Shown piece by piece: positions 1 through 42,195 of a stretch of 64,000 nt of DNA. A program made the translations under genes and the position numbers. Source of the DNA: a virus; IMG/VR virus record IMGVR_UViG_3300006046_000002, positions 1 through 64,000 of that record, one strand, 5' to 3'. The first letter of the stretch is position 1. Each line of letters begins with the position of its first letter. Below the pieces are notes generated by a model that did no database searches, had not been told where the DNA came from, and saw only the letters and a program-made list of their open reading frames with translations.

Positions 1-1
1 G

Positions 2-520
2 GAGGAGCGTCAGATCGCATGGGGCACGGGCGTGAACGAACTGCTCGGTCTCTTCGCTCCGGCCAACGCGATCCCCGAGTTCGCGCGCGCCGAGGTGGGC
101 GACACGATCATCGACACGATTCGTCGGATGCGCACGGATCTGCGCAAGAAGAAGGTGCAGCCGAACTTCGTTGGTGTCGACCCGATCGATTGGGAAGAGG
201 TCGAGCTGCAGAAGGGAACGGACATGCACTACCTCTGGGGCCTGATCAGCGACATCCGTGGTCCGCGCATCTGGTCACTGCGAGTGGTCGAGTCCGACGC
301 GATGACGAACCCCGACACGGGCGAGCGTCGTCTGCTGATGGGCGATGGCACGCGCGGCGCAACGATCTACGATCGCAATCAGATCCAGCTGGCGGTTGGC
401 CTGATGGACGATGACTTCGGTCGCAACCTTCGCACGCTTCGGGCGGAAGAGCGTCTGGCCCTCGCGGTCAAGCGCAACTTCGCGTTCGAGTATGCGACGA
501 CGGCCGAGGCGGCATCGTAA
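2..520 (+). CDS. Major capsid protein, HK97 fold, C-terminal part (5' end cut by window start)
   Basis: Frame is open from position 2 with no start codon. Sequence ...IAWGTGVNELLGLF...MHYLWGL...LRAEERLALAVKRNFAFEY resembles C-terminal regions of HK97-type capsid proteins. Head-tail connector genes follow directly. Confidence 0.75.
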   Translation, partial: EERQIAWGTGVNELLGLFAPANAIPEFARAEVGDTIIDTIRRMRTDLRKKKVQPNFVGVDPIDWEEVELQKGTDMHYLWGLISDIRGPRIWSLRVVESDAMTNPDTGERRLLMGDGTRGATIYDRNQIQLAVGLMDDDFGRNLRTLRAEERLALAVKRNFAFEYATTAEAAS

Positions 521-561
521 TCGCGGCTAGAGTTTGAACAGCTCTAGGCTCTACTGGTGTG

Positions 562-590
562 GCTCCCGAGCCAGTCGCGAATTCGGGAGC
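562..590 (+). other. 8-bp stem-loop just downstream of the capsid gene
   Basis: GCTCCCGA (562-569) pairs with TCGGGAGC (583-590), with a 13-nt loop. No T-run follows. Confidence 0.4.
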
Positions 591-633
591 ACCTACTTCA
601 CACATTATCTCCTTTCACTGGAGGACCAGTGAC

Positions 634-942
634 ATGAAGTACCTCGAGGCACTGAAGCAGAACGGGAAGGAGGCGAAGAAGTCGATTCTTCCCGAGGGTG
701 AGAACAAGATGCAGTCCGGCAATCGTCCGGGTCAGCGTGGCAACAATCTCAATCGCAACGATCCGCAGTCGCTCGTGAGTGGGTCGCACCAGAACGAGAA
801 CACGGCGGGCGGAACGTCGAACGAGAAGGGTGCCGTCTCTGCTCTGGCAAAGGAACTCGGCGTCGATCTCGGAAAGGTGAAGGGCACGGGTCCGCGGGGC
901 ACGATCACCGAGCAGGACGTTCGCGACGCGAAGTCCGAGTAA
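634..942 (+). CDS. Head-module protein with C-terminal E3-binding (PSBD)-like motif
   Basis: ATG 634 is preceded by GGAGGA (620-625). C-terminus reads LAKELGVDLGKVKGTGPRGTITEQDVRDA, matching the peripheral-subunit-binding-domain signature. Its position right after the capsid gene suggests a decoration or accessory head protein. Confidence 0.55.
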   Translation: MKYLEALKQNGKEAKKSILPEGENKMQSGNRPGQRGNNLNRNDPQSLVSGSHQNENTAGGTSNEKGAVSALAKELGVDLGKVKGTGPRGTITEQDVRDAKSE

Positions 943-970
943 CTTCACCGAATGCTAAGAGGATCGGCGT

Positions 971-1636
971 ATGATTGTGACGTTGGACGAACTCAAAGCC
1001 GTGCTGGGCATTCCGCTGACAGATGTCTCCCAAGATCCCTATCTCACGAGACTCATCTTGGCGAAGACCGCATGGATCGAAGGCTACACGCAACGGCGCT
1101 TTGATACGCCGATCCCGCATTCGCAGATTGCACAAGGCACGGGCGAGGACGCGATCTATCTAGAGTGGCATGTGGACGACGTCGTTTATGATCCGCCACT
1201 CAGTCCGTTGCCTGGCACATCAGTCGTTGTCTCGCGTCGGCCGATGCTCGAGCGCTTCCGTCCGTGGGAAGTGCTGACGGAAGGAGAAGATTGGGAACGC
1301 ATCGGCGATGTCATCTACTTCCTGCGCTGGTGGGGAATCTGGCCGAGCGAGGATGAAATCAAGGTCGATTATCTCGGCGGCTATGGCCTTGCGCCAGAAG
1401 ACATTCGCGATGCGTTGCTTGAACTCGCGTCGAATCAGTATGTCACCGATTCTACGGTCGCATCGAACGCATCGTCTGGTACCTCGGGCATCACGAGCGA
1501 AAAGATCGGCGACTTCAGTTACTCTGTCGGCACCAGCACCACAGTCTCGAGCAGCTCAACGATTGCTGGAGCTGATGGCAGTGCGCTCGGTTCAACAATG
1601 ATGACCCTTCAGCGGTACAAGCGGAGATTTCAGTAA
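971..1636 (+). CDS. Head-tail connector (gp6-like / QLRG family)
   Basis: N-terminus VTLDELKAVLGIPLTDVSQDPYLTRLILAKTAWIEGYTQRRF matches the gp6-like head-tail connector pattern. AGAGGA lies upstream of the ATG. Longer than typical members, with a Ser/Thr-rich tail. Confidence 0.65.
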   Translation: MIVTLDELKAVLGIPLTDVSQDPYLTRLILAKTAWIEGYTQRRFDTPIPHSQIAQGTGEDAIYLEWHVDDVVYDPPLSPLPGTSVVVSRRPMLERFRPWEVLTEGEDWERIGDVIYFLRWWGIWPSEDEIKVDYLGGYGLAPEDIRDALLELASNQYVTDSTVASNASSGTSGITSEKIGDFSYSVGTSTTVSSSSTIAGADGSALGSTMMTLQRYKRRFQ

Positions 1637-1998
1637 TGCCTCGGCCGACGATCGATCACCTGCTCGATACCACGATTCAGATCTGGCGTCCATCAATCAC
1701 AGATGATTCGGTCGGTATCGAAGAACGCGATTATGCGCCAGTCTTTACGGTCGATGCGGTGTTCAATCGGGCGACACAGCAGGAAGCGAACATCGGTGCC
1801 GGACTTGCGCCCGTCGGTAGTATGCGATGGTATGGCCGACCGGATATCGATGTGCGACCGCGCGATATCTGCGAAATTGTTGACGGACCTGAAGCGGGCA
1901 AGACGTTCGAGATCAACGCACCTCCGGTTCGACCGAAAGGTCATCATACGCAAGTCGATTGCATCGAGTGGAACGGTGTGTTGCCGAGCGTCTCATGA
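1636..1998 (+). CDS. Head-closure / head-tail adaptor protein
   Basis: TAATG overlap with the upstream gene. 120 aa, with an IQIWRP... beta-rich pattern and a position typical of SPP1 gp16 / HK97 gp7-like adaptors. Confidence 0.55.
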   Translation: MPRPTIDHLLDTTIQIWRPSITDDSVGIEERDYAPVFTVDAVFNRATQQEANIGAGLAPVGSMRWYGRPDIDVRPRDICEIVDGPEAGKTFEINAPPVRPKGHHTQVDCIEWNGVLPSVS

Positions 1999-2657
1999 CA
2001 TGGGAAATATTCTACACACCGCACACCGATGATGAAAGCATCGGGATGGCCGGAGCAATTGTCAAAGCGCGCAGCCTGGGACATGATGTCCTGGTCTGTC
2101 TCGTCACCGATAATCTGCCGTCCACTCGCGGACGCAACATGTTCGCTGATCGTGACATCGATCTCGTGCAACAGCGACTGATGGAATGGCATCACGCACT
2201 TGATTTGCTCGATGTGACTGAACGGCAAGTCTGGGGCTTGACTGAACTCGACATGCCGACGCACATTCGTGAGACGCGAGAATCAATTCGTACGCTCATG
2301 CACACGTTGCATCGAACGCATCGCGCAGTGCATCATCACGCGCCATGGGGCATGTGGGATCAGAACGGTGGCGTAGGATGTCTCGCACATGAACTCTGTG
2401 CGAGTGCCGCATTTGAACTATCGTACGAATATCCGGCGCATGTCTCGCTGTATGGAATCTACGAATACTCGAAACCGCCGCTCAAGCGATACGCGCCGAC
2501 GATGCAGTCATTGTCACCGCAACAGCACGAGATCAAGCGAAAGGCACTGAACGCATACTATCCGCAGCCGGGTTCGATCGGGTATGGATACACGAGCGTT
2601 CCCGAGTTGATGGATGCTGCCAAATCAGATCCACGTGAATTCGTGATCGAGCTCTAA
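1995..2657 (+). CDS. PIG-L / LmbE-family deacetylase-like protein
   Basis: ATGA overlap start at 1995. N-terminal FYTPHTDDESIGMAGAI resembles the (A/P)HPDDE..G.GG zinc-deacetylase motif. Confidence 0.6.
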   Translation: MTWEIFYTPHTDDESIGMAGAIVKARSLGHDVLVCLVTDNLPSTRGRNMFADRDIDLVQQRLMEWHHALDLLDVTERQVWGLTELDMPTHIRETRESIRTLMHTLHRTHRAVHHHAPWGMWDQNGGVGCLAHELCASAAFELSYEYPAHVSLYGIYEYSKPPLKRYAPTMQSLSPQQHEIKRKALNAYYPQPGSIGYGYTSVPELMDAAKSDPREFVIEL

Positions 2658-2658
2658 T

Positions 2659-3153
2659 ATGGAACGCATCATCAGTACGCCCGACATCACGATCTATCAG
2701 GGCCTCGCCGCTGAGTGGCCCGGTGATGAACATATCGATCTGGTCTTCACCAATCCGTATGGGTATCTACCGTCGTCGCTCGTCAATCACCCGATGGTCT
2801 TGCATCAGTGGATTCACCGCAAGCGACAATTGGAAGTCTGGGCGGAGAATCTCCTGACACATTGCGTCGGTGTGTGGAATCACGAGCGTGAAGCATTCTG
2901 GTCAGCGCATTATCCACGCCGTACGATTGATATCAGCGAGTTCGTCCCGGAACCTGGCGGATGGTACCCAGAAGATCTGGTGCGACGGTTGCTTCCGCAA
3001 TTCGTCTGTCCTGGACAGACCGTGTGGGATGGATTCATGGGTCGCGGCACTGTGGCAAAAGTATGCAGAGAACTCGGTGTGAAGTATGTCGGTGTTGAAG
3101 AATTGCCCGCGCATGTGGCCTTGGCACGCGATTATCTGGAGATCACGACGTGA
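2659..3153 (+). CDS. Small beta-class N6/N4 methyltransferase-like protein with atypical TNPY motif
   Basis: HIDLVFTNPYGY sits where motif IV (D/S)PPY is expected. A C-terminal VWDGFMGRGTVAKVCRELGVKYVGVEE resembles the AdoMet-binding FxGxG motif I. Order IV then I is as in beta-class enzymes. Only 164 aa. Confidence 0.55.
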   Translation: MERIISTPDITIYQGLAAEWPGDEHIDLVFTNPYGYLPSSLVNHPMVLHQWIHRKRQLEVWAENLLTHCVGVWNHEREAFWSAHYPRRTIDISEFVPEPGGWYPEDLVRRLLPQFVCPGQTVWDGFMGRGTVAKVCRELGVKYVGVEELPAHVALARDYLEITT

Positions 3154-4853
3154 TTGCGCATCTGTGGAATCGCCATGCAGGACGTGAGCTCGATACCATC
3201 GAAGTTGGAGGACGGCTCGCGCCCTATCGGTTGGTCGCGTGCCTGAATGTGTGGAATGATCACGAAGCCCTTCGGCGCAATCTGCCGTCATGGCGTGATG
3301 CCGTCGATCATGTGATTGTCGTTGACGGCAGTTACTCAACGACAAGCGAGCAGTCATTGTCAACCGATGGAACGCGCGAATATCTGCAGTCGCAGTTTTC
3401 ATCGATCGAATTTCTCGACGGTGCGGGATTGACACAGTGCGAAAAACGCACGATGTATCTGCGGCACGGATGTGACGATGACATGTTGTTCGTCATTGAT
3501 GCCGATGAACAGTTGGTCACACCGATCGAGACGCTGCATCGGCTTCCGGTATTCGATATCGGATGGGTACGAATCCAGAGTCCGATCTACACGAAGGAGT
3601 ATGGTCAGCCACGACTGTTCGCATGGCGACCGAATCTCTCGTATCGCGGTCGCCACCACTGGATGTACGAAGAACAGCGATTGTTCTGCACGCATCAGTA
3701 TGGTGGCGTTGGATTTTCGCATCGTCCGGTCGATGTTACACTGGTGAACAATCGCAATACGGGACGATCGATCGAACGACGCAATGTGAAGCGCGTCAAT
3801 ATCGCACAGCAGAATTCGATTGAGTTCTCCCTCGCGGCCATGCCGAGCTCGGTCATGTCCGATCAGGCAACTCAGGCGCGTGAGTGCTTGCATATTTTGA
3901 ACTACGCCTATCGTGATGATGGCCTTGCGCCATCGCGTCTGCACTCAGCGATCAATCGCACAACACCACATTCGTCAACGTTCTTCAAGGTGCGTCCAGG
4001 TCCATTCGGCGTCCCGACACAGTACGATGCCGGAATTGATTTCAAGATTCTCGCGCAAGCAGAACGTGAAGCCGACGTTATTCACATTCACTCTCCTGTC
4101 GCATCGAGTTTTCCGTCACGATACAATGTTCCGATCGTGTACCATCATCACGGCACACGACTGCGGAATAACCCGAAGCAGTGGGCTGACGCAGCAGAAC
4201 GACGAAACGCCTTGGTCATTGTCGCGAATCTCGAGTTGCTGACCTGGATCGATGGCGTGTTCGTACCGAATGCAGTTCCAGTCGCTCGATACCGCGCGTT
4301 GGCGGAGGCACACTGGACGACACTCGAGCATGCGTCGTCGTTCCGCGTGGCACATTCGCCTACGGTTCGCGAAAGAAAAGGAACGAAGGAGTTTCTTGCG
4401 GCGTGTGATCGGCTCCGTCAGCGCGGGTATCCTATCGAGCCAGTCTTGATCGAAGAAGTATCGCATGAACAAGCACTGCGAATCAAGGCGTCATGTCATG
4501 CAGTGTTTGATTCGTTCTGGCTTGGCATTCAGTGTAGTGGAATCGAAGGCGCCGCGATGGGATTGCCCGTTATTGCGGGCGATGAAATTGTCGCGCAGCG
4601 ATATCGCGAACAGTTCAGTGCTGTGCCGTATACGTTCGCTAATTCCGAAGCGGAACTTGAATACACGCTGCATCGTCTGATGGATGATCCACACTTCTAT
4701 CAGGAAGAAGCAGCACGAGTCAGTGACTATGTGACCACGTATCACGATGAGAGCGCCGTCGCGCTCGCGTATCTCGATCATCTCGATCGAGCATTCCAGT
4801 GGCGATCAGTTCGTGTGCGGTCGCCAGTGGCCCGTCCATGTCTCTGCAAATGA
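3150..4853 (+). CDS. Two-domain glycosyltransferase (GT2-like N-terminal, GT1/GT4-like C-terminal)
   Basis: GTGA-overlap GTG start. N-terminal part has VACLNVWND...VIVVDGSY...STDGT...FVIDADEQL (GT-A/GT2 pattern with DxD). C-terminal part has RERKGTKEFL...SGIEGAAMGLPVIAG (GT-B/GT4 pattern). Confidence 0.7.
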   Translation: MIAHLWNRHAGRELDTIEVGGRLAPYRLVACLNVWNDHEALRRNLPSWRDAVDHVIVVDGSYSTTSEQSLSTDGTREYLQSQFSSIEFLDGAGLTQCEKRTMYLRHGCDDDMLFVIDADEQLVTPIETLHRLPVFDIGWVRIQSPIYTKEYGQPRLFAWRPNLSYRGRHHWMYEEQRLFCTHQYGGVGFSHRPVDVTLVNNRNTGRSIERRNVKRVNIAQQNSIEFSLAAMPSSVMSDQATQARECLHILNYAYRDDGLAPSRLHSAINRTTPHSSTFFKVRPGPFGVPTQYDAGIDFKILAQAEREADVIHIHSPVASSFPSRYNVPIVYHHHGTRLRNNPKQWADAAERRNALVIVANLELLTWIDGVFVPNAVPVARYRALAEAHWTTLEHASSFRVAHSPTVRERKGTKEFLAACDRLRQRGYPIEPVLIEEVSHEQALRIKASCHAVFDSFWLGIQCSGIEGAAMGLPVIAGDEIVAQRYREQFSAVPYTFANSEAELEYTLHRLMDDPHFYQEEAARVSDYVTTYHDESAVALAYLDHLDRAFQWRSVRVRSPVARPCLCK

Positions 4854-4861
4854 GGTGACGA

Positions 4862-5047
4862 ATGGAACTCCAGGACATTGTAACTGCTCCGCAAGACCGA
4901 TCGCTGGTCTCGACAACGGTGTGGGCGCTCTTCAATGCGGAGCATGGTCGGTTCAAGGTGAAGGTGTGGATCTTCAACTTTGATGCTGAATCACTTGTCC
5001 GCGCGTGGATCACTGCGAAGTTTGGTCCCGACCCGATGGCCGTGTAA
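4862..5047 (+). CDS. Hypothetical protein (61 aa)
   Basis: GAGGTG lies upstream of the ATG. TAATG coupling to the next gene. No recognisable motif. Confidence 0.4.
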   Translation: MELQDIVTAPQDRSLVSTTVWALFNAEHGRFKVKVWIFNFDAESLVRAWITAKFGPDPMAV

Positions 5048-5601
5048 TGATCAAGTTTCTGACACAGTGGGTCGGACTCGAGACGCTGGCGCAGGAAGAG
5101 TTCGAAGCATTGCGTCGGCCGACTGAGATCGCCATTTCGAAAGCGACGTTGTACTACGAAGGCCGAGTGAAGAAGAAACTCGGTGCGACTCCAGCACGTA
5201 CTGGTCGTATGTATGGCGATCATCAAGCATCAGCGCCAGGCGAGCCACCTGCTCCGTTGTCAAGTGATCTTCGCCGATCGATCACGCATTCACCAGTGAT
5301 CTGGGAAGGAGATGTTGCCAGTGCTGAAGTCGGAACGGATCGACCGTATGGGCGGATTCTTGAATTCGGCGGTGTGACGAGTCATGGCGTTCGCATTCTT
5401 CCGCGTCCATACTTCAGTGCGACATGGCTTGAAGAGGAAGAACGGATTCAACAGATTCTCGACAATGCTGTGCGCAAGTCGCCCGTCATGGGCGATATCG
5501 TGGCTGAAGTAACTGAAGACAGCATCGGTCGAAAGTCTGGACGCGATCGATCAGAAGCTGCACGTCGAGGGTGGGAGACACGGCGCGCAAAGCAATCTTA
5601 A
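5047..5601 (+). CDS. HK97 gp10-family tail-completion protein
   Basis: Start taken at the TAATG overlap. Motifs GEPPAPLSSDLRRSI and YGRILEFGG...RPYF are typical of the HK97 gp10 family. Confidence 0.7.
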   Translation: MIKFLTQWVGLETLAQEEFEALRRPTEIAISKATLYYEGRVKKKLGATPARTGRMYGDHQASAPGEPPAPLSSDLRRSITHSPVIWEGDVASAEVGTDRPYGRILEFGGVTSHGVRILPRPYFSATWLEEEERIQQILDNAVRKSPVMGDIVAEVTEDSIGRKSGRDRSEAARRGWETRRAKQS

Positions 5602-5616
5602 CACCGAGGTGGATAC

Positions 5617-6021
5617 ATGATGTGGGATCACGTGATGGAATCGGTCAAAGCGTTGATCACGGCTGATCCTACGCTGAATGCGATCTTCGGCGACAATTTT
5701 CGGAAGTCCGGTCCGGCAGTCGATTTGGCCGTGCCCATCATTGAGTGGACGTTACTGGCTGACACGGAGACTGAACTCTGGGCGCCGATGCTCATCCAGT
5801 TTGATTGCTGGACGAAAACTGCTGCCGATAGTCGAGTGGCAGAACGGCGACTGCGAAGTCTGTTCATGCGTACCACGAGTATCGTGTTCGATACCTACAC
5901 GATAATCACTGAATACGCAGACGGAGCTGACCTCGCAGTTCCAAACCGATCTGGCTATGTGGGTCGTGGTGTTCGTTTTCGTATGAGTCCGTTGCGTCAG
6001 CAGTATGCACGACCTGTGTAG
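5617..6021 (+). CDS. Tail terminator / tail-completion protein (DUF3168-like)
   Basis: GAGGTGG lies upstream. 134 aa, with size, position before the tube gene and an N-terminal VKALITADPTLNAIFGD pattern like DUF3168 proteins. Confidence 0.5.
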   Translation: MMWDHVMESVKALITADPTLNAIFGDNFRKSGPAVDLAVPIIEWTLLADTETELWAPMLIQFDCWTKTAADSRVAERRLRSLFMRTTSIVFDTYTIITEYADGADLAVPNRSGYVGRGVRFRMSPLRQQYARPV

Positions 6022-6071
6022 TGTTCAAATAGATTCGCGCAAAGTTTATCTTCCACTGAGGAACAGGAGTC

Positions 6072-6755
6072 ATGTCGAATCTCAATCTCAAGGATGTATC
6101 CAGCATTCTCGCCTCCTACGGCCGCGGAGTGGTGTTCTATGCGGACAAGTGGGATCCGACTGCTGGCGCACTGACCATGACGCAACTCGGCGTGACAGAA
6201 GGTGATATCGTCGAGACGCCGAATGCGACGACTGCAGTCATGACCTATCCGGAGTTGACGGGACCAGCGGCGCAGGATGTCGACTATCTCGGTGAGAATC
6301 CGGTCGTCGAGATTCCGTTGTATCTCGCTGATCCGGCACTGCTCGCGGTCGTCTCGCCATCCGGCAGCGCGCACGCGGGTCGGTCACGTCGTGGTCCAGT
6401 CAAGCAGTGGACGCTCGCGATCTTTCCGGAAGCACTGTTCCTGTCGACAGATGTTGACGGTATCGTCACGGATAAGACGGTGGCCTTCGGCGTCGGAGGC
6501 GCGTGGACGTTCAATGGCGCGGCACTCACCGTTGATCAGCAGCGGTATCTGGATGTCTCGTTCTGGCTGTGGCGCTGCGTCTTCAATCGCCCACCGCGTC
6601 GGTTCCGTGGTGGCGCGGGCGAAGAGAAGAAAAACATCGAGACTGTGTCCACGCAGACGATGCATCATCCACAGATGCCGGAAGGCCATCACCTCTTCAC
6701 GACGGGTGATCCATTCGACAGCGGCATCGATCTCAACGGCTTCACGCCGTCCTGA
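6072..6755 (+). CDS. Major tail (tube) protein
   Basis: 227 aa ORF placed between the terminator-like gene and the G/GT chaperone pair. The call is positional only. Confidence 0.55.
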   Translation: MSNLNLKDVSSILASYGRGVVFYADKWDPTAGALTMTQLGVTEGDIVETPNATTAVMTYPELTGPAAQDVDYLGENPVVEIPLYLADPALLAVVSPSGSAHAGRSRRGPVKQWTLAIFPEALFLSTDVDGIVTDKTVAFGVGGAWTFNGAALTVDQQRYLDVSFWLWRCVFNRPPRRFRGGAGEEKKNIETVSTQTMHHPQMPEGHHLFTTGDPFDSGIDLNGFTPS

Positions 6756-6757
6756 TC

Positions 6758-7249
6758 ATGGGACAGTTTCGCTACGTCTCACCTGACGAAGTAGCACAGC
6801 GTCACCGCACCCGGAATGTGGAGACTCTACTTCGTCAGCCGCGTCAGCCAGAACATCGGAACGTTGAACAAGTGTTGTCTCTCGGTGATGTGCGATACGT
6901 GCTGTTTCGTACTCGTACGTATCGCATTCCGCCAGTTCCGTACAAACTCGGCGAGCGTGTGCTTGAGTCGCACGCTCGTCTGGTGCAGTACGGAAGAGAC
7001 GTCGCTACGACGGGCAAGAAAGAACCGACGGATAAGTTCTATCGGCAGTTGACGATTCAAGCGCGACTGCTGTGGTCACACATGCGGCCGACTGGGAAGA
7101 TGAAACGTATGCTCTGGCGTCTTCGACTCATGCGCAATCCGTTCTACGCAGCGTCAGAGAAAGAGATCACGGAGCTCACCAATTTTTTCTTGCTGTGCCG
7201 GATGACGTCAAGCGTCCAACCTATCTTGGGGAAAGTGGAAGCGAACTGA
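6758..7249 (+). CDS. Tail assembly chaperone (G-like, zero-frame product)
   Basis: Lies immediately upstream of the tape measure. Overlapped by a -1 frame ORF (7072-7500), with a slippery T_TTT_TTC 60 nt before its stop. Confidence 0.7.
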   Translation: MGQFRYVSPDEVAQRHRTRNVETLLRQPRQPEHRNVEQVLSLGDVRYVLFRTRTYRIPPVPYKLGERVLESHARLVQYGRDVATTGKKEPTDKFYRQLTIQARLLWSHMRPTGKMKRMLWRLRLMRNPFYAASEKEITELTNFFLLCRMTSSVQPILGKVEAN

Positions 7250-7500
7250 CTGTTCACGATATCGATGATCTCGATGAGCTGATCACGTTCGTAACGTATC
7301 GTCCGGCATGGGTACGACCCGATGGATTTCCGTTGTCGTGGCAGCACTACGTCTACGGAATGCGACACATCGCGCGCGAAAACATACGCCATCAGTTATG
7401 GATGGCACAAGCATTTCGATTGGGACGCCAAGAAAAAGAAAACTGGGAAACGTTCCAGCGTGATACCAATCGTTTGACTGAGGTTCCAACGCATGGCTGA
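6758..7500 (+). CDS. Tail assembly chaperone GT-like fusion made by programmed -1 frameshift at 7183-7189
   Basis: The zero frame reads ...ELTNFF. After a -1 slip the frame continues ...FFLAVPDDVKRP... to the stop at 7498-7500, which overlaps the tape measure start at 7493. Confidence 0.65.
7183..7189 (+). promoter_or_regulatory. -1 ribosomal frameshift slippery heptamer T_TTT_TTC
   Basis: X_XXY_YYZ pattern in the zero frame (AAT TTT TTC). The -1 frame is open from here to 7500. Confidence 0.6.
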
Positions 7501-10237
7501 TAACATCATCCAGCGCATCATCAAGATGGTGCTGGACAAAGAGTCAGCAAAGAAGACGCAGGACGATGCCAATCAAATGGCGTCGAAGATTGATGATACG
7601 TGGAAGTCAGTCGCGCAGAAGATTGGTGGATATCTCGCTGCTGGTTTCTTGATCAGTAAGGTCATCGCCTTTGGGAAAGCCGCTATCGCTGAAGCGACGT
7701 CGTCAGAGAAAGCGTGGAAGCAACTCAAAGGAACGATCGACAATACGGGCGCATCGTACGATGCGATGCAGGATAAGATCGTTGCAGCAGCGAATGCGTT
7801 TCAAGATTCAACGATTCATGATGACGACGCATTCGCTGAGACGATGGGTCGCATGGTAACGTTGACTGGTGATGCTGCCGCATCGCTGAACAACATGGGA
7901 CTTGTCGCCAATGTCGCGGCGCAATTTTTCAATGGAGAATTGGAGCCCGCCGCGAATCTCGTTGCTAAGGCGATGAATGGTAATACGAATGCCCTGAAGA
8001 AGATGGGCATTCAGGCGAAGGATGCGCAGGATGCACTGAACATTCTCGCGCAGCGTTCGATGGGCGCGGCGACGCGCGAAGCGAAGACGTTCGATGGTCA
8101 GATGCATCAGCTGAGCGAAACGTACAAGGACATGCTGAAGGAAGTCGGCAACGCCATCATCATGAACGATGGTGCGACCGATGGTGTCAGTGTCCTTCGC
8201 GCAGCGTTGCAAGCGTTGACGAAGTGGGTCCATGAGAATCGCGATGCGATCTCGCTCTGGGTGACGAAGGGCGTGATGTTCGCGATCGACGCAGCCGATG
8301 TCTTCATTCGTGCGATTGTTGGCATGTCGAATGTCATCGGCGGAGGATTCATGTCGTTCCTCGGCCTGGCGTCAGTTGGATTGGCGAAGCTCGCTCTTGG
8401 ACTGGTCGCGGTACGCAATGGTGTCCACGCCGTACAAGATGTCTTCGGCATGGACAACAAGAAACAGAAAGACGAAACGAAGGCGATCGAAGAACAGGCA
8501 GAAGCATTGGAAGAGTGGGGCAAGCAAGCGCACAACACTGGAGTAGAACGTGTGAAGATCGGCGTCGATGTGCTTGCAACGCCAATGTTTTCGAGCAAGG
8601 ACTTCATGGGCAAGTTGAAGATTCCAGACCTGACGGTCAATCGCCCAATGGTCGGAAAGAATCAGAGTACCGACGCAACGAAAGAAGTCACGAAAGCACT
8701 CGAGGATTTCCAGAAAGAAGCGAAGGCTGCCGCGAATATGCAGAAGGTGCTCGGCGATCAATTCGACGCGACTGGTGCTGAGATTGATCGGACGACGAAA
8801 CTCCTGAATGTGCTCGCGGCCAATGGCCTGACGCCAGCATCTGTTGGCATGGCGGGATTGAGTGAGCACTTGCAGGATCTCGTTAAGAACATGAAGCCAG
8901 TGCACGACGCACTGAAAACATTTCACGAAGAAGAAAAGGTCGCAGAGAATTCGCACAAGATTTTGGGTGATCGATTCGATGCGACGGGCGCAGAAATCGA
9001 TCGCACCACGAAATTGCTGAACGTCCTCGCGGCCAATGGCATTGATCCCACGACCATTGGCCTTGGTGATCTCAGTGGTCGGTTGACACAGCTCGTCACG
9101 AACATCAAGCCAGTGGAAGATGCGACCAAGTCATTGGCGAAGTCGTTGAAATCGAATCTCGCGACAAGCGCGATTGAATCATCAGCAGCAATTCGAGAAT
9201 TGCAGCGGCAGCAGGATGCAACGCTTGAATCGATGAACACATTGATTGCGCAGGGTGTTGATCCGCAGTCTCCGCGCATTCGCGCACTGGTGAAAGAATA
9301 CGATAGTTTGCAGAAACGTATCGGTTCAATCACGGCAGAGACAACGGTCAGTCGCCTCAAGCAACAGCAAGGCGATATTCTCTCGACAATCAAGTCCCTG
9401 CTCGATGAAGGATTGGATCCGACATCACAAGCGATTACGGATCTGACAGAGCGGTACAACAAGCTGACCGATTCGATCTCTGACACCGAGAAGATTCAAG
9501 CAGTTGCTGATGCCTACGCATCGCTTGGTGAAGAGATTCGTATGGCCGCATTCACGGCGGCACTTGAAGGTGCTAACGGCATGGATGCCCTTCAGGCGGA
9601 GCAGCAAGCATTGCTCAAGTCCATTCAAGACCTGATCTCGAAGGGGATCAAGGTGGAAGATAAAGCGTTGCAGGATTTGATTCATCGCTACAAGGAAGTA
9701 TCGAAAGCGATTCAAATGCAGACGGCTGTCATGGAATTGCAGACGGCTGTTGCTGATGTTCTGGCTGAAGCACTCGGCGCCGCATTGCAGGGCGGACTGC
9801 ATGAAGCCGCAGTGGCGAAAGCAAAACAGAATGCGATCGAAGCGGCGGAGATGATCGTTCGTGCTGGCGCATTCGCTCTCATGGGACGATACGACAAAGC
9901 CGGACAAGCCCTCGCATTGGCTGGAGAATTCGCTGCAGTCGCGGCGATGTGGGGAGCATTCGCTGCAGTCACCGGAGGTGGCGGAGGTGGCAGCGACACG
10001 GGAGGTGCAGGAGCAGGAGGTGGTGGATCAAGCTCGAGCATGGGTGATTCACGTGCATCATCGAATGATGCGGCAAATCGCGCGGATCAACCGAAAACAG
10101 AAGTTACTATCAATCTGGTCGGTCCGGGATTCCACGCACTGAATCCGGCTGTGCAAGAAGTTGTGTGGGGCGCGACGCAAGAAGCATCAGAACGATTTGG
10201 TCCGAACACTCGTATTCGCATCAGCTCTCAGCAGTAA
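7493..10237 (+). CDS. Tape measure protein (914 aa)
   Basis: Size and position after the G/GT pair. Alpha-helical Ala/Leu/Lys-rich sequence with hydrophobic central segments, internal 71-aa tandem repeats and a Gly-rich tract near the C-terminus. Confidence 0.85.
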   Translation: MADNIIQRIIKMVLDKESAKKTQDDANQMASKIDDTWKSVAQKIGGYLAAGFLISKVIAFGKAAIAEATSSEKAWKQLKGTIDNTGASYDAMQDKIVAAANAFQDSTIHDDDAFAETMGRMVTLTGDAAASLNNMGLVANVAAQFFNGELEPAANLVAKAMNGNTNALKKMGIQAKDAQDALNILAQRSMGAATREAKTFDGQMHQLSETYKDMLKEVGNAIIMNDGATDGVSVLRAALQALTKWVHENRDAISLWVTKGVMFAIDAADVFIRAIVGMSNVIGGGFMSFLGLASVGLAKLALGLVAVRNGVHAVQDVFGMDNKKQKDETKAIEEQAEALEEWGKQAHNTGVERVKIGVDVLATPMFSSKDFMGKLKIPDLTVNRPMVGKNQSTDATKEVTKALEDFQKEAKAAANMQKVLGDQFDATGAEIDRTTKLLNVLAANGLTPASVGMAGLSEHLQDLVKNMKPVHDALKTFHEEEKVAENSHKILGDRFDATGAEIDRTTKLLNVLAANGIDPTTIGLGDLSGRLTQLVTNIKPVEDATKSLAKSLKSNLATSAIESSAAIRELQRQQDATLESMNTLIAQGVDPQSPRIRALVKEYDSLQKRIGSITAETTVSRLKQQQGDILSTIKSLLDEGLDPTSQAITDLTERYNKLTDSISDTEKIQAVADAYASLGEEIRMAAFTAALEGANGMDALQAEQQALLKSIQDLISKGIKVEDKALQDLIHRYKEVSKAIQMQTAVMELQTAVADVLAEALGAALQGGLHEAAVAKAKQNAIEAAEMIVRAGAFALMGRYDKAGQALALAGEFAAVAAMWGAFAAVTGGGGGGSDTGGAGAGGGGSSSSMGDSRASSNDAANRADQPKTEVTINLVGPGFHALNPAVQEVVWGATQEASERFGPNTRIRISSQQ
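8744..9169 (+). repeat. Tandem 213-nt (71-aa) duplication inside the tape measure gene
   Basis: K(V/I)LGD(Q/R)FDATGAEIDRTTKLLNVLAANG... occurs twice, starting at 8744 and 8957. More degenerate ~35-aa repeats follow (LIAQGVDPQSP, LLDEGLDPTSQ, LISKGIKVEDK). Confidence 0.8.
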
Positions 10238-10258
10238 ACTTTCTCTCTGCGGTGAACA

Positions 10259-11272
10259 ATGCCTGGACTGCCACTGCGGCCGATCATCACGTATGGGTCA
10301 CCGACGAAGACCATCGATCTGTCGATGCCTCAGAAGTGGTGGGGATACAAGACACAACTCGTCGGCGGATCACGGAAAAGTTCTGCTGGCATTCCAGAAT
10401 CTTTCACGATTCGCGAAGACAACTTGTCGATGCTCACACTTCGGGTGCATGAGTGTGAGCTCTTGGATGTGCGCGATTGGATTCTCGATTGTTGGCGGAG
10501 GAGCGCGACATTCAAGTTTCAGTACGATGCACTCGATATTGAAACGGTGTTCACCTGCTACTTGGATGCGCCGACATATGACGATGGATGGGATCCGCAG
10601 CGGATGACCAATCCTAACTTCCCGCAGTTCTGGGAAGTCACGGCGACTATTCGTAACACCCTCGCAGAGATTCCGATCTTCGTATCTGTGACTGGCGATT
10701 GTGCATCGACGAGCGTGTCCGAGCAAGCATGGGTGCTCACTGATTTTGCGAACGGCTCAAGCTTGCGTCTGTCGGTTCCGCCGCCGGGCGCAGGATTCGG
10801 ATCTGGCGCGAACTTCGTCAATCTGCCAGATCCGATGACTGATCCGGCAGTACTCTACATTTCGGATCCACCCGAGAATACGTGGGACACACTGATCTTG
10901 ACGGCGGGTTTGCTGATTCCGTTGAATGTCTATCTGGAAACATCAGGCCCGACACCAGATCTTGGATGGGATCGTGCTGGTGGATTTTTCAAGATCAAAC
11001 AGATGCGCGGATCGAGCGTCATCGCAGAAGCAACATCTCCGCAGATGGGATTCGGCTCACTCGTCTCGAGCTATACGTCATTCGACGTATCATCCATCGG
11101 CTCACTGCGCGTTGAGGTTGATGATTTCATTCGCCTCGAGCTCTATGGATATCAGAGTCTCGCACCGGGTCGTACTGACGAAGGGTACCGATGCTTCTAC
11201 TACTATGGCGCAGTCTTCGGTCCGCGATTGAATCCACGTCTGGTCTGTCTGTCTAACGTGGAGGAACAGTAA
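10259..11272 (+). CDS. Tail tip protein (distal-tail-protein candidate by position)
   Basis: First ORF after the tape measure, 337 aa. The call is positional only. Confidence 0.4.
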   Translation: MPGLPLRPIITYGSPTKTIDLSMPQKWWGYKTQLVGGSRKSSAGIPESFTIREDNLSMLTLRVHECELLDVRDWILDCWRRSATFKFQYDALDIETVFTCYLDAPTYDDGWDPQRMTNPNFPQFWEVTATIRNTLAEIPIFVSVTGDCASTSVSEQAWVLTDFANGSSLRLSVPPPGAGFGSGANFVNLPDPMTDPAVLYISDPPENTWDTLILTAGLLIPLNVYLETSGPTPDLGWDRAGGFFKIKQMRGSSVIAEATSPQMGFGSLVSSYTSFDVSSIGSLRVEVDDFIRLELYGYQSLAPGRTDEGYRCFYYYGAVFGPRLNPRLVCLSNVEEQ

Positions 11273-14200
11273 TGCCTAACTATCTGTTCCAGCGTTTGAC
11301 GTTCTTTGCCGATGATGATGTCACACCGCTGTTGGGTGCAGTCGATGTTGATGGAAAAGTCATTGATCCGACGTTTTCAACTGATCCAGAGCACGTTCGT
11401 CCGTATCTCGAGTTTTCAGAAGATACGGGTCAGCAGGATGTTGATTTCCTGCAGGGATCATCGACCATCGGCACGATTTCGCTGACGATTCTCGACAAGC
11501 GTCGGACAGCGAATGATCAAGCGACGGGAATCTTCACGTGGCTTCAGGTCAGTGGTACGACGGGCGACACTGCCGTTCTTCGCCGACGCGCACTGTGGGA
11601 AGGTCTGCTATCTGACGGAATCACATGGGTCGTGTTGATGAATGGTGTGCTGACGCGAGTCGCACTGAATGACGATCTCGTCAGCTATACCATCGGCCTA
11701 CGCGACATGCGCGAGCGTGAACGACGCGTGCGTCTGTTCGTGAAGAACAACAACGCTGTGATCGATGGCAGCGGAAATATCACCATCTCGCGCGGCACCT
11801 GTTTCTTCCCACTCGTTGGCCCGATGGAAGGATGGGGTCGGCCAACAAAGTACGATGCGACACTCGATCGCGTTGTGCAGTATGGTGCTCCACAGCTGGA
11901 ACCGACACACGGTGTCAAAGGCAAATGGATTCAAGATCTCCTCGGCGGATCATACGTCTACTTCGACATCAATGATCCGACGTCAGGTTTCGTGTACGCC
12001 GAGGGGCGTGAAGATCTCTTCGCAAAGTACGGACAGTCGAGCTACGATGGCCAAGGTCAGATTCTGCTCTCGTCAGGAATCTTCGATACGAGCTATCTGA
12101 CCTTCGATAAATACTCGTACAATAACTCGATCGCGCAGTGGAGTCCGAATCCCACGGGTGGACCGTGGTACACGATGAAGATCATGCCCGCGAATACGGG
12201 CATCATTGCGTTTCGGGATAACATCTTCGAGATAGTCGAGGGACAGTCGACGCTGAACTTCAACCTCACAGGGTTGAATCTCTCGATTCCGAAAGGCCAG
12301 CCGTTCAAGTATGTTCGCTCCGCGAAGTTGATTCCATCGCCTGGCGATACATCACCGACGAATGGACAGACGGTGTATGTTCGCTATATCAGCAACATGC
12401 AGCCGGAGAAAGACGTACCGAAATATCTTGAAGAAGAAACCTTCGGTATTTTTCTGAAGAAGATCTACGACGGTGAATTCAGCGATCCAGAAGTTCCGCC
12501 GCGTGTGGCATACGATCTCACGGCGATGAACAAGATGATCGCTGATACACCGCTGATGATCGGCATCGTTGACGAAGTCGTCACCGACATGCGCGGATGG
12601 GTCGAAGAAAATATCTACAAGCCACTCGGCTATGCGCCCGCGCTCTCGCCTGATGGAACGATCACGCCGATCAAATACGCATTACCAGATGAGACTGTTC
12701 CGCTGTTGATGTTGACAGATGCGAACGTTGAGAAGGCCACCTGGGAACATAGCGATGAGAACGTTATCAACAAGGTGACGTTCACCTATCAGCGCGATAT
12801 GGTTCCGGCAGTGCCCAGTCTCAACGCACTCGCTGGTGTCAAGATCAATACGACAGACATCATCATCGAGAACTGGAACATCGCGTCGATTCCGTTGTTC
12901 GATACGAAGTCACTCGACTACAAGCCTGTCACGACACACTCGGTCTTGGTGACTGGGAGTAAGTTCATCCCGCGTCCCAATGTCTCGAGTGAAGTCGGAT
13001 GGCGTCTCGCGATCGCGCGCACTGCCGATGTGATCATGCGATTTGGCAATGGCGCGCAGGTCTGCACCGTGACCGCGATGGGGAGTGATCCCGATGTCGC
13101 CGCCGCGAAGATTGGCGGATGGTCTGTTCTCGGCGTCTCGTGGCTGCCGGATTACAAGACACGGAAACGTGGCATCGCGCGATTGATGCAGATCACGAGC
13201 ATCAAACGCACGACACCGATTTCGTACGAATTCACACTGCTCGATGCAGGTCCGTACGAAGCGGCCAAGACCTGCCCGACGGTCAACAATATTCAGCAGT
13301 ATGCTGATGGCCGTGTGTCAGTTGATGTCACTGGCATTCCCGCTGATACGATCGCTCGTCTCGAGTTTGCGATCAGTGACACCGAGCCTCCGCCAGAGAG
13401 CGGTGCGTGGATGCTGCTGAAGCGAACACAGACGACCGGAACAGTCTACACCACGGCGCAAGCGCCCGGAGTGAAAGTCTGGATTCGGTGGCGCGGTGAA
13501 GCGCAAGGGGCGAGACCATCAGCGTGGTGCGGTGTCCTGAACATCACCATCGCCAATACGGCACAGATGGTGGATGCCCGATTGATCCTCATCGATGGCG
13601 TGCCGCGTGTGAGTTGGGACGCGACCTCATCGACACTTGGCATTCGTGTTCTGTATCAGCGACATCCAGAAGGATCAGCACAGCCGACATCACTCGGTTC
13701 ATCGATCGATGCTGATGTGAACCTGAATGGGAGTGATGGACGCGGCTATATTGATCTGCCGTTCAAGCTCAATCCGTACGAACAGATCACCGTTCAGGTT
13801 GTTGGTTATCCTGGATTCTCTGGCGGTGCGGTGTCCGGAACAGCGGGCATGGCGTCGCAATACATGACCGCGCAATACACTGTCGACATCGGTCCACCGA
13901 CCGTATTGCCGATCGTCTCGTACAGTGGCGGTGGACTCGTCGGTGCAGCGACGCTGACGGTCAACGAGAATCTGTCAACGGACACGATCGGTGTGCAAGT
14001 GAAGGACGATGCAAACACGATTTGGACGTTAGTCACATCGGGCTCGGATGCGACGCCACTACTCGTTGCTCCGGGAACGGTGATTGCATCGACATCGTGG
14101 TGGCATCAGGGTTCAACATTCGAGCAGTTGCTGATGGGACAAGGTCTGACCGCTGGTGTCACGCGCACATTCTATTCGCAAGTGACCGCGACGAAGACTG

Positions 14201-36230: not shown

Positions 36231-37796
36231 TTAGGACTTCTTGTTGGTCCAGCTGAAGTCGATGTCGAGGTCCTCGTCGCCCACGACCTTCGGCTCCTCC
36301 GGCATCCGGATCGTGTTGATCGGCTGCTCCCGCTTGCGCAGCTCCTCGATCCGCTTGCGCTCGGCCTCGAGCCGCACCTTCTCCTCCGCCTCGCGCCGCT
36401 CTGCCTCGATCTTCCGGAGCCGATCGGCGATGACCTTGACGTCCGTGAGCGGCACCCACGGCGCGTGAATGCGGATCGTGCTGGCGCGGCTCGGCGACAG
36501 ATACAACATGTCGCCCCGACCGAGCAGTCCCTCAGCACCCTTCATGTGGAGGATGACACGCGAGTCCTGCATCGACGTCACCTTGAACGCCATGCGTGCC
36601 GGGAAGTTCACCTTGATCCGGCCTGACAGGACGTCGACCGACGGACGCTGAGTTGCCGCCACCATGTGGATGCCAGTGGCGCGGGCGATCTGGCTGATTT
36701 CCGCGATGAGCCGAGTGAACTCCTTGCGGTCCTGCATCATCAGGTCACCCAACTCGTCGATCACGCAGACAATGCGCGGAAGCTTGGCCTCTGACTTCGA
36801 GCCCTCGACCACTCCGTTGTACTCCTTGATATCCCGGACTCCCTTGTACGACAGGAGGTTCAGGCGGCGCCGCATTTCACGCACCAGCTTTTCCAACATC
36901 TCCTTGGCGCGGTGCGGCGACGTGACCATCGCTTCCTTCATGTGCGGGATGCCGTTGTAGTGCATCAGCTCCACACCCTTCGGGTCAATCATGTAGAACT
37001 CCAACTCCTCCGGCGTGCACACCGTCAGCAGCGAGCTGATGATGCAGTTCAGGCTGACCGACTTGCCCGCGCCAGTGCTGCCAGCGATCAGCAGATGCGG
37101 CATCGTTGCGAGGTCGTCGATGATCGGCTCACCGAACGGATCCGTGCCCAGATTCAGCGGGAGCTCCATACCTTTGGCCTTGGCCGACCGCACCGACTGA
37201 AGCGACGCACGGAACCCAACGTTCTGGCGCTCGCTGCTTTCGTTGGAGATCTCGATACCCATGACGTCCTTGCCAGCGATGCGCCGCACCATCACGGCAT
37301 CAGCGCTGAGCGCCAGTGCCAAGTCCTCCTGCAGATTGATGAGCCGCCGGATGCGCGTGCTCTTGGCGGGCTGAAACTCGTACAACGTGATGACGGGTCC
37401 CTTGCGCACGGCCATCACCTTTCCGGGGCACCCGAAGAACGAGGCGCGCTCCTCGATGGTCTCCTTGGCCTCGCGCTGATCGGGCGTCATTTTCGTCGTG
37501 ACATCCTCTCCGGTCTCGAGATCGCGGGACACGACCGTCAGGCCTTTCGGCGCCACGAACTTCGGCATGCGCTCGGCCTTGCTCGACTTCTTGAGCTGAC
37601 CCTTGACCTTGACCTTGCTCGCCTTGCGGACTTCTGCCTTTGTCTTTTTCACTGGCTTCTTCTCCGTGGACTTGGTGGACTTCGCCTTCCCCGAACCGCC
37701 ACACTTCAGGCACTTCTTCATCGACACGCGGCCAGCCTTCTTGATGAGCGTGACGCCCATGCCAGCGCAGAACGTGCAATCGGTGGTCTTCTTCAT
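36231..37796 (-). CDS. Soluble FtsK/SpoIIIE-family ATPase with N-terminal zinc finger and Lys-rich linker
   Basis: Walker A LLIAGSTGAGKSVSLN, Walker B VCVIDELGDLMM, then ATQRPSVDVL. No N-terminal membrane helices. The N-terminus is CTFCAGMG...CLKCGGSG followed by KAKSTKSTEKKPVKKTK. Confidence 0.85.
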   Translation of the reverse strand: MKKTTDCTFCAGMGVTLIKKAGRVSMKKCLKCGGSGKAKSTKSTEKKPVKKTKAEVRKASKVKVKGQLKKSSKAERMPKFVAPKGLTVVSRDLETGEDVTTKMTPDQREAKETIEERASFFGCPGKVMAVRKGPVITLYEFQPAKSTRIRRLINLQEDLALALSADAVMVRRIAGKDVMGIEISNESSERQNVGFRASLQSVRSAKAKGMELPLNLGTDPFGEPIIDDLATMPHLLIAGSTGAGKSVSLNCIISSLLTVCTPEELEFYMIDPKGVELMHYNGIPHMKEAMVTSPHRAKEMLEKLVREMRRRLNLLSYKGVRDIKEYNGVVEGSKSEAKLPRIVCVIDELGDLMMQDRKEFTRLIAEISQIARATGIHMVAATQRPSVDVLSGRIKVNFPARMAFKVTSMQDSRVILHMKGAEGLLGRGDMLYLSPSRASTIRIHAPWVPLTDVKVIADRLRKIEAERREAEEKVRLEAERKRIEELRKREQPINTIRMPEEPKVVGDEDLDIDFSWTNKKS

Positions 37797-42188: not shown

Positions 42189-42195
42189 TGAGTGA

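Follow-up and report, generated by a model that had tools for sequence, protein, structure and literature searches.

The window analysed here, positions 1–64,000 of the virus record IMGVR_UViG_3300006046_000002 (64,000 nucleotides in all), carries a cassette of three genes within the operon for late structural proteins. They encode a PIG-L/LmbE-type deacetylase (orfA), a very small methyltransferase-fold protein (orfB) and a two-domain glycosyltransferase (orfC). Our analysis, which was computational throughout, suggests that this cassette on balance probably serves late, phage-encoded glycosylation of virion proteins, with the major capsid protein as the likeliest target and the tail tube protein as a possible further one. 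Virion proteins had already been proposed as substrates in a preliminary description of this DNA. The comparative data favour that proposal, because 57 of 63 informative loci show linkage between a glycosyltransferase of this type and the major capsid gene, because the GT-A domain of orfC is closest to GmaR and because the C-terminal serine of the capsid and tube proteins is kept in relatives; the substrate itself is one that we infer. The cassette consists of the following features.

1995–2657, plus strand: orfA, PIG-L/LmbE-family metal-dependent de-N-acetylase of 220 amino acids (PF02585).
2659–3153, plus strand: orfB, minimal core of a β-class N6/N4 amino-methyltransferase, 164 amino acids (PF01555 and fold).
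3150–4853, plus strand: orfC, two-domain glycosyltransferase of 567 amino acids, a GT-A + GT-B fusion by predicted fold.
3228–3764, plus strand: GT-A (GT2-like) domain of orfC, residues ~27–205, with the DxD motif D117-A-D119.
3882–4799, plus strand: GT-B (GT4-like) domain of orfC, residues ~245–550, assigned from Foldseek matches.

The AlphaFold model of orfC, built with 54 homologues, is compact and globular (predicted local distance difference test score, pLDDT, 92; predicted template modelling score, pTM, 0.92). Comparison by Foldseek assigned a GT-A fold to its N-terminal and a GT-B fold to its C-terminal part. In the 54 sequences, D59, D117, D119, H169 and H170 of the GT-A domain and H332–H334, G335, R339, K410 and E466 of the GT-B domain are invariant. 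The second glutamate of the classical EX7E motif is absent from the GT-B domain, which has V474 eight residues after E466. When the family profile was compared with the PDB, GmaR’s N-terminal glycosyltransferase domain was the best match (E = 9.4e-5), with the sequence DADE aligned and with the similarity confined to ~100 residues. This domain transfers N-acetylglucosamine (GlcNAc) onto Listeria flagellin (PMC9638930). The best fold matches of the GT-A domain are the peptide glycosyltransferases SunS and ThuS, and those of the GT-B domain are the retaining GT4 enzymes PimA, BshA, MshA, PglA and TreT (E 1e-9 to 1e-8, probability 1.0); PglA is also a weak sequence match of the GT-B domain. In a library of viral structures, orfC matched only generic multi-domain giant-virus glycosyltransferases, which ranked at the top, and uncharacterised phage proteins. 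More than 275 full-length homologues were found, all of them metagenomic proteins. PF13524 is present in one homologue and PF13692 in one, and some bear the JGI name ‘glycosyltransferase involved in cell wall biosynthesis’. Thus all three enzyme classes named in the preliminary description are real, with a difference in how they were recognised: orfA and orfB score above the hidden Markov model (HMM) thresholds for PIG-L and N6_N4_Mtase, whereas both glycosyltransferase domain calls fail theirs and are supported by the predicted fold instead.

To examine the genetic context of this enzyme, we gathered 99 loci that encode a homologue either of orfC or of the GT-B half alone; in 63 of them the upstream DNA was long enough to be informative. 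An HK97-type capsid gene is located upstream on the same strand in 57 of these 63 loci, and versions consisting of the GT-B domain only begin 250–800 nt past the capsid stop codon. The GT-B domain is also the part that orfC has in common with the capsid-side glycosyltransferases of other phages. The linkage occurs in at least two capsid lineages that have no BLAST match to each other. The window is most of a phage-like contig of ~65.3 kb, judged by the cluster of the orfA protein, whose longest listed contig has 65,293 nt. In the window, the late operon runs on the plus strand from before position 1 to ~19.4 kb, and the genes on either side of the slot that holds the cassette are listed below (ORF, open reading frame).

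32–520, plus strand: C-terminal 162 amino acids of the major capsid protein (PF05065, 46.7 bits; phrog_10), the gene starting upstream of the window and the protein ending in ...FEYATTAEAAS.
559–942, plus strand: small low-complexity protein that immediately follows the capsid gene and contains an E3_binding domain.
971–1636, plus strand: gp6-like head–tail connector with a Ser/Thr-rich C-terminal segment (PF05135, 29.8 bits; phrog_442, E = 3e-16).
1636–1998, plus strand: head-completion (head closure) protein, the upstream border of the slot, a weak assignment (PF05521, 23.1 bits against a threshold of 25; phrog_501, E = 1.3e-3).
4862–5047, plus strand: orphan ORF of 61 amino acids between orfC and the tail-completion gene, called from sequence only.
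~5047–5601, plus strand: HK97 gp10-like tail-completion protein, the downstream border of the slot (PF04883, 22.2 bits against 21.4; phrog_26 and phrog_5).
5617–6021, plus strand: protein of 134 amino acids with no family match.
6072–6755, plus strand: major tail (tube) protein, a putative assignment made from its position, ending in ...DLNGFTPS; two overlapping chaperone ORFs and a tape measure protein of 914 amino acids follow.

The capsid proteins encoded beside glycosyltransferase homologues mostly end alike. Among 38 distinct capsid tails, 34 have a terminal serine and 37 have a serine within the last two residues. The residues before the terminal serine vary (AEAAS, EAPNS, VPASS, DDATS, DAVAS, GSINS), and the serine is kept in all window-type relatives. 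As controls we used two cultured distant relatives of the capsid protein, from Caulobacter phage Kronos (...GPVAA) and Streptomyces phage Dagobah (...TAVGA), neither of which has an annotated downstream glycosyltransferase. The tube protein is 70–91% conserved, and its terminal serine is present in all five distinct relatives (FTPS, GMS, GLS, GAS), again with varying residues in front. Within the window, four of the seven structural proteins from head to tube end in serine compared with 2 of 68 other ORFs (Fisher p = 4e-4, post hoc). We regard the terminal serine as a hint to the acceptor, a lead rather than a result, which makes the C-terminus of the capsid protein a candidate for the glycan acceptor and the tube protein a second candidate. 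In mycobacteriophages, capsid and tube subunits carry their glycans at the C-terminus, according to passages in PMC12619734 that cite Freeman et al. (2023).

Two further acceptors were considered and dropped. The terminal serines of the head- and tail-completion proteins are not conserved in relatives, and the Ser/Thr-rich segment of the connector is present in the closest relative, L018, and much weaker in the relatives L001 and L019. In the window this stretch (1480–1600, plus strand) reads SNASSGTSGITSEK...GTSTTVSSSSTIAG; its counterpart in L018 is a run of nine serines.

In all relatives with the same structural module, down to 51% identity, a glycosyltransferase lies between the head-completion and tail-completion genes. 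The content of the slot in these relatives, with the identity of the respective orfC homologue, is as follows.

L018 (70%), the closest relative: glycosyltransferase only.
L019 (55%): all three genes of the window’s cassette.
L001 (54%): PIG-L, GT2, Methyltransf_23, mini-methyltransferase, fusion and a two-domain GT2/GT7C protein.
L021/L046 (54%): PIG-L, a weak, sub-threshold Methyltransf_24-like gene, mini-methyltransferase, fusion and a two-domain GT2/GT7C protein of 534 amino acids.
L022 (54%): PIG-L, mini-methyltransferase and fusion, then an ORF of 531 amino acids.
L026 (51%): fusion, its 5′ end cut by the contig, then an ORF of 512 amino acids.
L024 (51%): holin-like gene and fusion, then an ORF of 512 amino acids.

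Judged by these gene contents, the island is modular, as in other glycan-diversifying loci, and the glycosyltransferase fusion is its constant core. The genes for PIG-L and the mini-methyltransferase are jointly present in seven distinct arrangements (the window, L001, L019, L020, L021/L046, L022 and L025) and jointly missing from L018, L023 and L024; neither was ever found alone. The preliminary description had treated the whole cassette as interrupting a canonical gene order. The comparison of synteny did not support an insertion, as the glycosyltransferase is in the slot in all relatives and only the deacetylase and methyltransferase pair comes and goes. In the slot of L024, a GTA_holin_3TM protein of 147 amino acids (6546–6989, 65 bits) is encoded upstream of the glycosyltransferase. 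The head-completion protein, which is conserved in relatives at 51–75% identity, is fused in L001 (4242–5612) to an extra domain of ~340 amino acids with no family match. A distant orfC homologue in L003 adjoins genes for a sulfotransferase, a DegT aminotransferase and a GFO/IDH/MocA oxidoreductase.

The accessory pair is fused in L103, where a single protein of 416 amino acids combines PIG-L (residues 1–233) with the methyltransferase (residues 243–401, 49% identical to orfB). The order in this locus is capsid gene, glycosyltransferase directly after it, then the PIG-L–methyltransferase fusion. The same locus (1–12,080 of a 48 kb contig, Logan SRR21686408) contains an intein in the terminase and a portal/MuF fusion of 1682 amino acids with a Zeta_toxin domain and a weak intein match. 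A mini-methyltransferase 38% identical to orfB was found in an SU10-like podophage (L100, 1–14,525 of a 41 kb contig, JGI 3300068063), in a sugar island between the capsid and adaptor genes. This island encodes a TPR protein, a GT2 enzyme, the mini-methyltransferase, an FkbM-type methyltransferase and a Methyltransf_23 + CTP-dependent riboflavin-kinase-like protein (class-I methyltransferase), and the capsid protein next to it ends in ...DLRTS. It represents an independent lineage and argues, short of proof, that orfB belongs to a sugar pathway and not to DNA methylation.

The three genes of the cassette are closely packed in the late operon. The stop codon of the head-completion gene (1998) and the orfA ATG (1995) form an ATGA overlap (1995–1998), the orfA TAA (2655–2657) is followed one base on by the orfB ATG (2659), orfB and orfC overlap in GTGA (3150–3153) and orfC stops with TGA at 4851–4853. 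The ORFs lie where the preliminary description placed them, with overlapping or abutting stop and start codons. For orfA, the N-termini of homologues (MTWEVFYTPH...) favour ATG 1995 over TTG 1959. Homologue alignments of the tail-completion gene start at residue 14–15 of a longer ORF, and its true start is probably ATG 5047. The TAA of the orphan 61-amino-acid ORF overlaps this ATG. The orphan has no PHROG match and no homologue among 106 fetched loci, and it is absent from L018 and L019, in which the tail-completion gene overlaps the glycosyltransferase stop codon; being without a homologue, it was rejected as a conserved member of the cassette. The G+C content of the cassette does not differ from that of its flanks, with no compositional break, no excess of promoter-like or terminator-like sites was seen at the cassette, and no tRNA genes were found. 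On these grounds a recent insertion with its own promoter was rejected. Further upstream, the protein encoded at 559–942 ends in the E3_binding domain (45 bits), which the equivalent gene also has in L001 and L019 and lacks in L018; it may be a decoration or scaffold-like protein.

The orfA protein matches PF02585 with 37.5 bits (gathering score 28.2) over residues 7–119, and the family is precomputed on all 45 of 45 homologues. Its P9-H10-T-D12-D13 aligns with the HPDD motif of the archaeal diacetylchitobiose deacetylases 3WL4 and 3WE7 in the PDB. H10, D12, D13 and H132 are invariant in 25 homologues, the last of which we take to be the third metal ligand. With metal ligands and catalytic base intact, orfA looks active and shows the sequence pattern expected of a zinc-dependent de-N-acetylase.

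The model of orfB, built with 34 homologues, has a pLDDT of 97, and its best Foldseek matches are M1.HpyAVI, CcrM, M.BceJIV and M.PvuII (M1.HpyAVI, E = 1e-8; TM 0.62–0.72, query-normalised). It matches PF01555 (N6_N4_Mtase) with 41 bits against 26.7, only at profile positions 165–219 of 221, which form the C-terminal S-adenosylmethionine (SAM)-binding part. orfB shares with β-class DNA methyltransferases such as M1.HpyAVI, CcrM and M.PvuII the fold, the order of motif IV before motif I and the FxGxG SAM motif. Motif I (D124-G-F-M-G-R-G-T131) is invariant or nearly so in the 34 homologues. Motif IV, ~65 residues away, is T31-N-P-Y-G35, each position being at least 90% conserved in 34 sequences and Y34 invariant; it differs from the canonical (D/S)PP(Y/F/W) tetrapeptide and is one residue shorter or shifted compared with DPPY/NPPY. 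Unlike the β-class DNA methyltransferases, orfB has 164 amino acids, ~70 fewer than M1.HpyAVI (232 amino acids), the closest solved fold match, and is a catalytic core without a recognisable target-recognition region. Its gene is moreover coupled to that of a sugar deacetylase, the two being fused in some cases. The gene described earlier as methyltransferase-like encodes a β-class DNA methyltransferase fold that is stripped down and whose catalytic motif is non-canonical. When 1.84 billion representative proteins were searched with the profile, a small and sharply bounded family of 30 clusters stood out at E ≤ 1e-30, beyond which ordinary methyltransferases match the motif I region only.

Taken on its own, orfB could be a small DNA methyltransferase of the usual kind, acting on adenine or cytosine and protecting the phage DNA from restriction, the sugar genes next to it being incidental. 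This explanation agrees with its Pfam, NCBIfam and PDB matches, which are all to DNA methyltransferases, with its intact motif I and with the small size of M1.HpyAVI itself; moreover, no sugar genes surround the most distant family member, P0194 (32% identity). It accounts less well for the constant company of PIG-L, up to fusion in L103, and for the recurrence of the family in a second, unrelated capsid-side sugar island. The sharp separation of the family, the motif TNPY(G) instead of (D/S)PP(Y/F) and the length of orfB relative to M1.HpyAVI point in the same direction. We consider an ordinary DNA methyltransferase unlikely, but an explanation to be taken seriously.

From the folds, the conserved residues and the gene linkage we infer the acceptor, the sugars, the order of the steps and the target of methylation as follows. 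The core enzyme, orfC, would act late on newly made virion subunits in the cytoplasm. Its GT-A domain, which has a DxD motif, resembles GmaR and is of the inverting GT2 type, would prime a Ser/Thr hydroxyl, plausibly with GlcNAc and with the conserved C-terminal serine as the candidate site. The GT-B domain, of the retaining GT4 type, would add a second sugar. The order of the two domains could be reversed, since in MshA/MshB, BshA/BshB and PIG-A/PIG-L a GT4 enzyme acts first and a PIG-L enzyme after it. Where present, orfA would remove the N-acetyl group from a hexosamine of the glycan, and orfB would next alter what results. The simplest assumption is that the freed amine becomes methylated, since enzymes of the (D/N/S)PP(Y/F) type transfer methyl groups to amino groups; we hold this step with considerably lower confidence than virion glycosylation itself. 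Relatives extend the island by further GT2 enzymes and class-I methyltransferases, so that the glycan would differ between phages.

In its most extended form, the proposal is that a widespread system, not recognised so far, exists in uncultured tailed phages whose hosts are probably not actinobacteria. It would O-glycosylate the major capsid protein at its conserved C-terminal serine and, in the present lineage, the tube protein likewise. It would do so by means of a family of glycosyltransferases that accompanies the capsid gene, together with a DNA-methyltransferase fold that has been stripped of DNA recognition, is coupled to PIG-L and has been repurposed to N-methylate a de-N-acetylated sugar, which would leave an N-methyl-hexosamine on the virion surface. 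That all of these parts hold jointly is rather doubtful, and we put this version forward tentatively.

Several observations weigh against glycosylation of virion proteins. Both Pfam matches of orfC are below threshold (Glyco_transf_4, 21.1 against 28.5 bits; Glyco_tranf_2_4, 17.1 against 27.5 bits), the T4 DNA α-glucosyltransferase appears at rank 30 among the GT-B fold matches and the structural relatives of orfB are all DNA methyltransferases. To our knowledge, characterised PIG-L enzymes act on small or lipid-linked GlcNAc conjugates and not on glycoproteins. The linkage to the capsid gene is in part inherited synteny, the 57 loci not being independent, and the slot accepts unrelated cargo such as the holin-like gene of L024, so that position alone is weak evidence. 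The terminal-serine pattern was noticed post hoc, with two controls only and in phylogenetically related loci. Finally, the phage has no cultured relative and is known here from its genes alone.

One alternative arises from a second group of sugar and DNA-modification genes on the minus strand of the window.

39,769–41,058, minus strand: GT4-type glycosyltransferase.
41,031–42,263, minus strand: clear homologue of SQD1/UDP-sulfoquinovose synthase (plant SQD1; PDB 1I24, E = 3.6e-92 over the full length; NCBIfam NF041015, 320 bits, below the cut-off of 575).
42,196–42,990, minus strand: protein with a weak match to glucosyl-hydroxymethylcytosine (HMC) glucosyltransferase.
42,987–43,778, minus strand: nucleotide kinase with DUF3310.
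43,577–44,464, minus strand: 5-hydroxymethyl-deoxyuridine (5-hmdU) DNA kinase (PF18723, 152 bits).
44,461–45,102, minus strand: P-loop protein.
45,139–45,732, minus strand: deoxynucleoside monophosphate (dNMP) phosphatase.
45,953–47,035, minus strand: ThyA-like protein of 360 amino acids.

By its gene content, this early region at 39.7–47 kb beside the replication genes is a complete thymidine-hypermodification set, and the virion DNA probably carries modified thymidine. The cassette could complete this pathway: orfC would glycosylate 5-hmdU or a derivative of it before packaging, orfA would trim an N-acetyl sugar and orfB would act on the DNA or on the DNA-bound sugar. Besides the 5-hmdU DNA kinase, the ThyA-like protein, the dNMP phosphatase and the nucleotide kinase of the genome, the fold relatives of orfB, which are all DNA N6/N4 methyltransferases, and the presence of the T4 enzyme among the GT-B fold matches fit such a role, and phage glycosyltransferases are known to build complex DNA glycans (bioRxiv 10.1101/2023.12.21.572611). 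According to the same source, however, DNA glycosyltransferases normally lie near ThyS-like, 5mYOX or C5-methyltransferase genes. None of these adjoins the cassette, which is inside the structural operon; orfC is separated from the ThyA-like/HMUDK cluster by more than 34 kb and lies on the opposite strand. The cluster has, in a typical neighbourhood, a glycosyltransferase of its own as well as a sugar-nucleotide enzyme, so that DNA glycosylation, if there is any, is already provided for. In addition, the family of orfC goes with the capsid gene in different lineages, the GT-A domain of orfC is closest in sequence to a protein O-GlcNAc transferase, and orfB has no recognisable target-recognition domain and lacks the canonical DPPY motif. 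We therefore assign little probability to a role in DNA modification. The enzyme at 39,769–41,058 was also considered as a paralogue of orfC and rejected, the two having no similarity.

Enzymes of the host envelope offer another comparison. The three proteins might act on the envelope or its precursors (lipopolysaccharide, teichoic acid, exopolysaccharide or peptidoglycan intermediates), for example to stop progeny from adsorbing to debris. GT4, GT2 and PIG-L-family enzymes usually use lipid-linked or small-molecule acceptors, PimA, BshA, MshA and PglA are the top folds of the GT-B domain with PglA recurring as its weak sequence match, the JGI names of some homologues refer to cell wall biosynthesis, and in L024 the slot has accepted a holin-like gene, which has an envelope function. 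Serotype-converting glycosyltransferases, on the other hand, are normally expressed from prophage morons near the attachment site and not from within the late operon’s middle part. Receptor masking would leave the near-universal position after the capsid gene and the C-terminal serine of the capsid protein unexplained, and the predicted structure of orfC is compact and globular; an action on the envelope thus appears distinctly unlikely. The same families of enzymes also make soluble glycosides, and a compound of the type glucosamine (GlcN)-X, like the precursors of mycothiol and bacillithiol, could be the product instead of a macromolecular glycoconjugate. A GT4 GlcNAc transferase followed by a PIG-L deacetylase is precisely the logic of the pathways named above, BshA and MshA are among the top fold matches, and BshB1 and BshB2 are the only NCBIfam matches of orfA, far below their cut-offs. 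Yet no ligase or other downstream enzyme accompanies the cassette, the closest relative, L018, has the glycosyltransferase alone, and a soluble product gives no rationale for the capsid linkage or the placement in the late operon. We give this explanation only a very slight probability.

The preliminary description refers to glycosylation in some actinobacteriophages; the actinobacteriophage setting that this implies is one that we reject. The large terminase is 42–48% identical to those of Nitratiruptor, Bdellovibrio, Pseudomonas and other phages, the closest being phages of Gram-negative hosts, and the metagenome bins with relatives are mixed in taxonomy. A scan of genome collections gave nine matches in such bins, four from Gemmatimonadaceae/Gemmatimonadetes and the others from Bacteroidales, Burkholderiales, Actinomycetales and Methanobacteriota. 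From these sequence relationships, the host is probably not an actinobacterium. Only five loci, partial and distant, were found in IMG/VR. Soil and freshwater are the sources of metagenomes that contain relatives. A nucleotide search of window positions 1–8000 against sequenced phages gave just a 34-base match to Gordonia phage GMA6. In tblastn searches of 50,697 phage records, orfA had no match, orfC had none at E ≤ 1e-5 and orfB had just ~30% identity to ordinary DNA methyltransferases; by these comparisons none of the three proteins has a family-level relative in the sequenced phages. Nothing relevant was found in the literature on PIG-L/LmbE proteins together with phage glycosyltransferases in structural modules.

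Some other genes of the window deserve mention. Between the large terminase (55,569–57,155) and the portal gene (59,790–62,015), an unusual place for a fibre-like protein, the plus strand (57,142–59,766) encodes a collagen-repeat protein of 874 amino acids (PF01391, 180 bits), in which ~330 residues of G-X-Y are followed by HTHAPxxITGTAVxxSDARLxDAR repeats. Early genes on the minus strand at 36,231–37,796 and 50,297–51,142 encode an FtsK/SpoIIIE-family ATPase (176 bits) and a papain-family Peptidase_C1 protein (35 bits). The replication genes comprise DNA polymerase A, a primase-polymerase/D5 helicase, an SNF2 helicase, a PD-(D/E)XK nuclease and an ATP-dependent ligase.

Among known systems, the functionally closest by analogy is virion glycosylation in mycobacteriophages (Che8 gp110, Corndog gp38, Myrna). 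There, phage glycosyltransferases have been proposed to decorate the capsid and tail tube subunits, as reported in passages of PMC12363180, PMC11256854 and PMC12619734 that cite Freeman et al. (2023). The glycans described in those passages are at subunit C-termini, and it is the C-terminal serine of the capsid and tube proteins that is kept here. There is no detectable homology between the two systems, and orfC, having no match in the 50,697 phage records, is no homologue of Che8 gp110 or Corndog gp38. PMC11256854 places the glycosyltransferase genes of cluster F1 near the 3′ end of the genome, in contrast to the structural operon here. The present cassette differs further in its GT-A + GT-B fusion, its PIG-L deacetylase and its mini-methyltransferase, and in a host that is probably not an actinobacterium; passages citing Freeman et al. 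(2023) mention neither a deacetylase nor a mini-methyltransferase.

GmaR and the chlorovirus protein A064R are the best mechanistic analogues. Like GmaR of Listeria monocytogenes, SunS and ThuS, orfC has a GT2-type GT-A domain with a DxD motif and would modify, in the cytoplasm, a polymer-forming protein. Those enzymes have TPR-type substrate-binding domains, whereas orfC has a GT-B domain; a TPR protein is encoded in the SU10-like island. A064R of PBCV-1 is a multi-domain enzyme that builds the glycan of the capsid protein. It is virus-encoded and cytoplasmic, combines several transferase activities with a methyltransferase and is dedicated to the major capsid protein, as we propose for the cassette. 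It differs in belonging to a eukaryotic virus, in making N-linked glycans and in having in the same protein a methyltransferase that O-methylates rhamnose, and it has no sequence homology to the cassette. The pairs MshA/MshB, BshA/BshB and PIG-A/PIG-L resemble the cassette in joining a retaining GT4 fold to a zinc deacetylase of the PIG-L family, by which the amine of the transferred GlcNAc is exposed. Their acceptors are inositol, malate or phosphatidylinositol and a ligase or acyltransferase follows, while here the follow-up enzyme has a methyltransferase fold and the context is virion assembly. The PBCV-1 capsid glycosyltransferase is also mentioned in the study of DNA glycosylation cited above (bioRxiv 10.1101/2023.12.21.572611).

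Virion glycosylation has so far been shown only for some mycobacteriophages, in which it shields against antibodies, and was considered rare elsewhere. If glycosylation of virion proteins is the function of the present cassette, sugar coats on phages would be much commoner, given a metagenomic family of more than 275 proteins in the head-assembly operons of several lineages. Their purpose would then be environmental and not only a matter of host immunity, with possible roles in stability, adhesion or the evasion of defences or grazers. The conserved C-terminal serine provides a concrete and testable acceptor site. The pair of PIG-L and mini-methyltransferase may represent a case in which a DNA-methyltransferase fold has moved to a non-DNA substrate, which, if true, would caution against the automatic annotation of such proteins as DNA methylases. 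Modular islands of glycosyltransferases and methyltransferases beside the capsid gene could moreover serve the glyco-engineering of phage particles.

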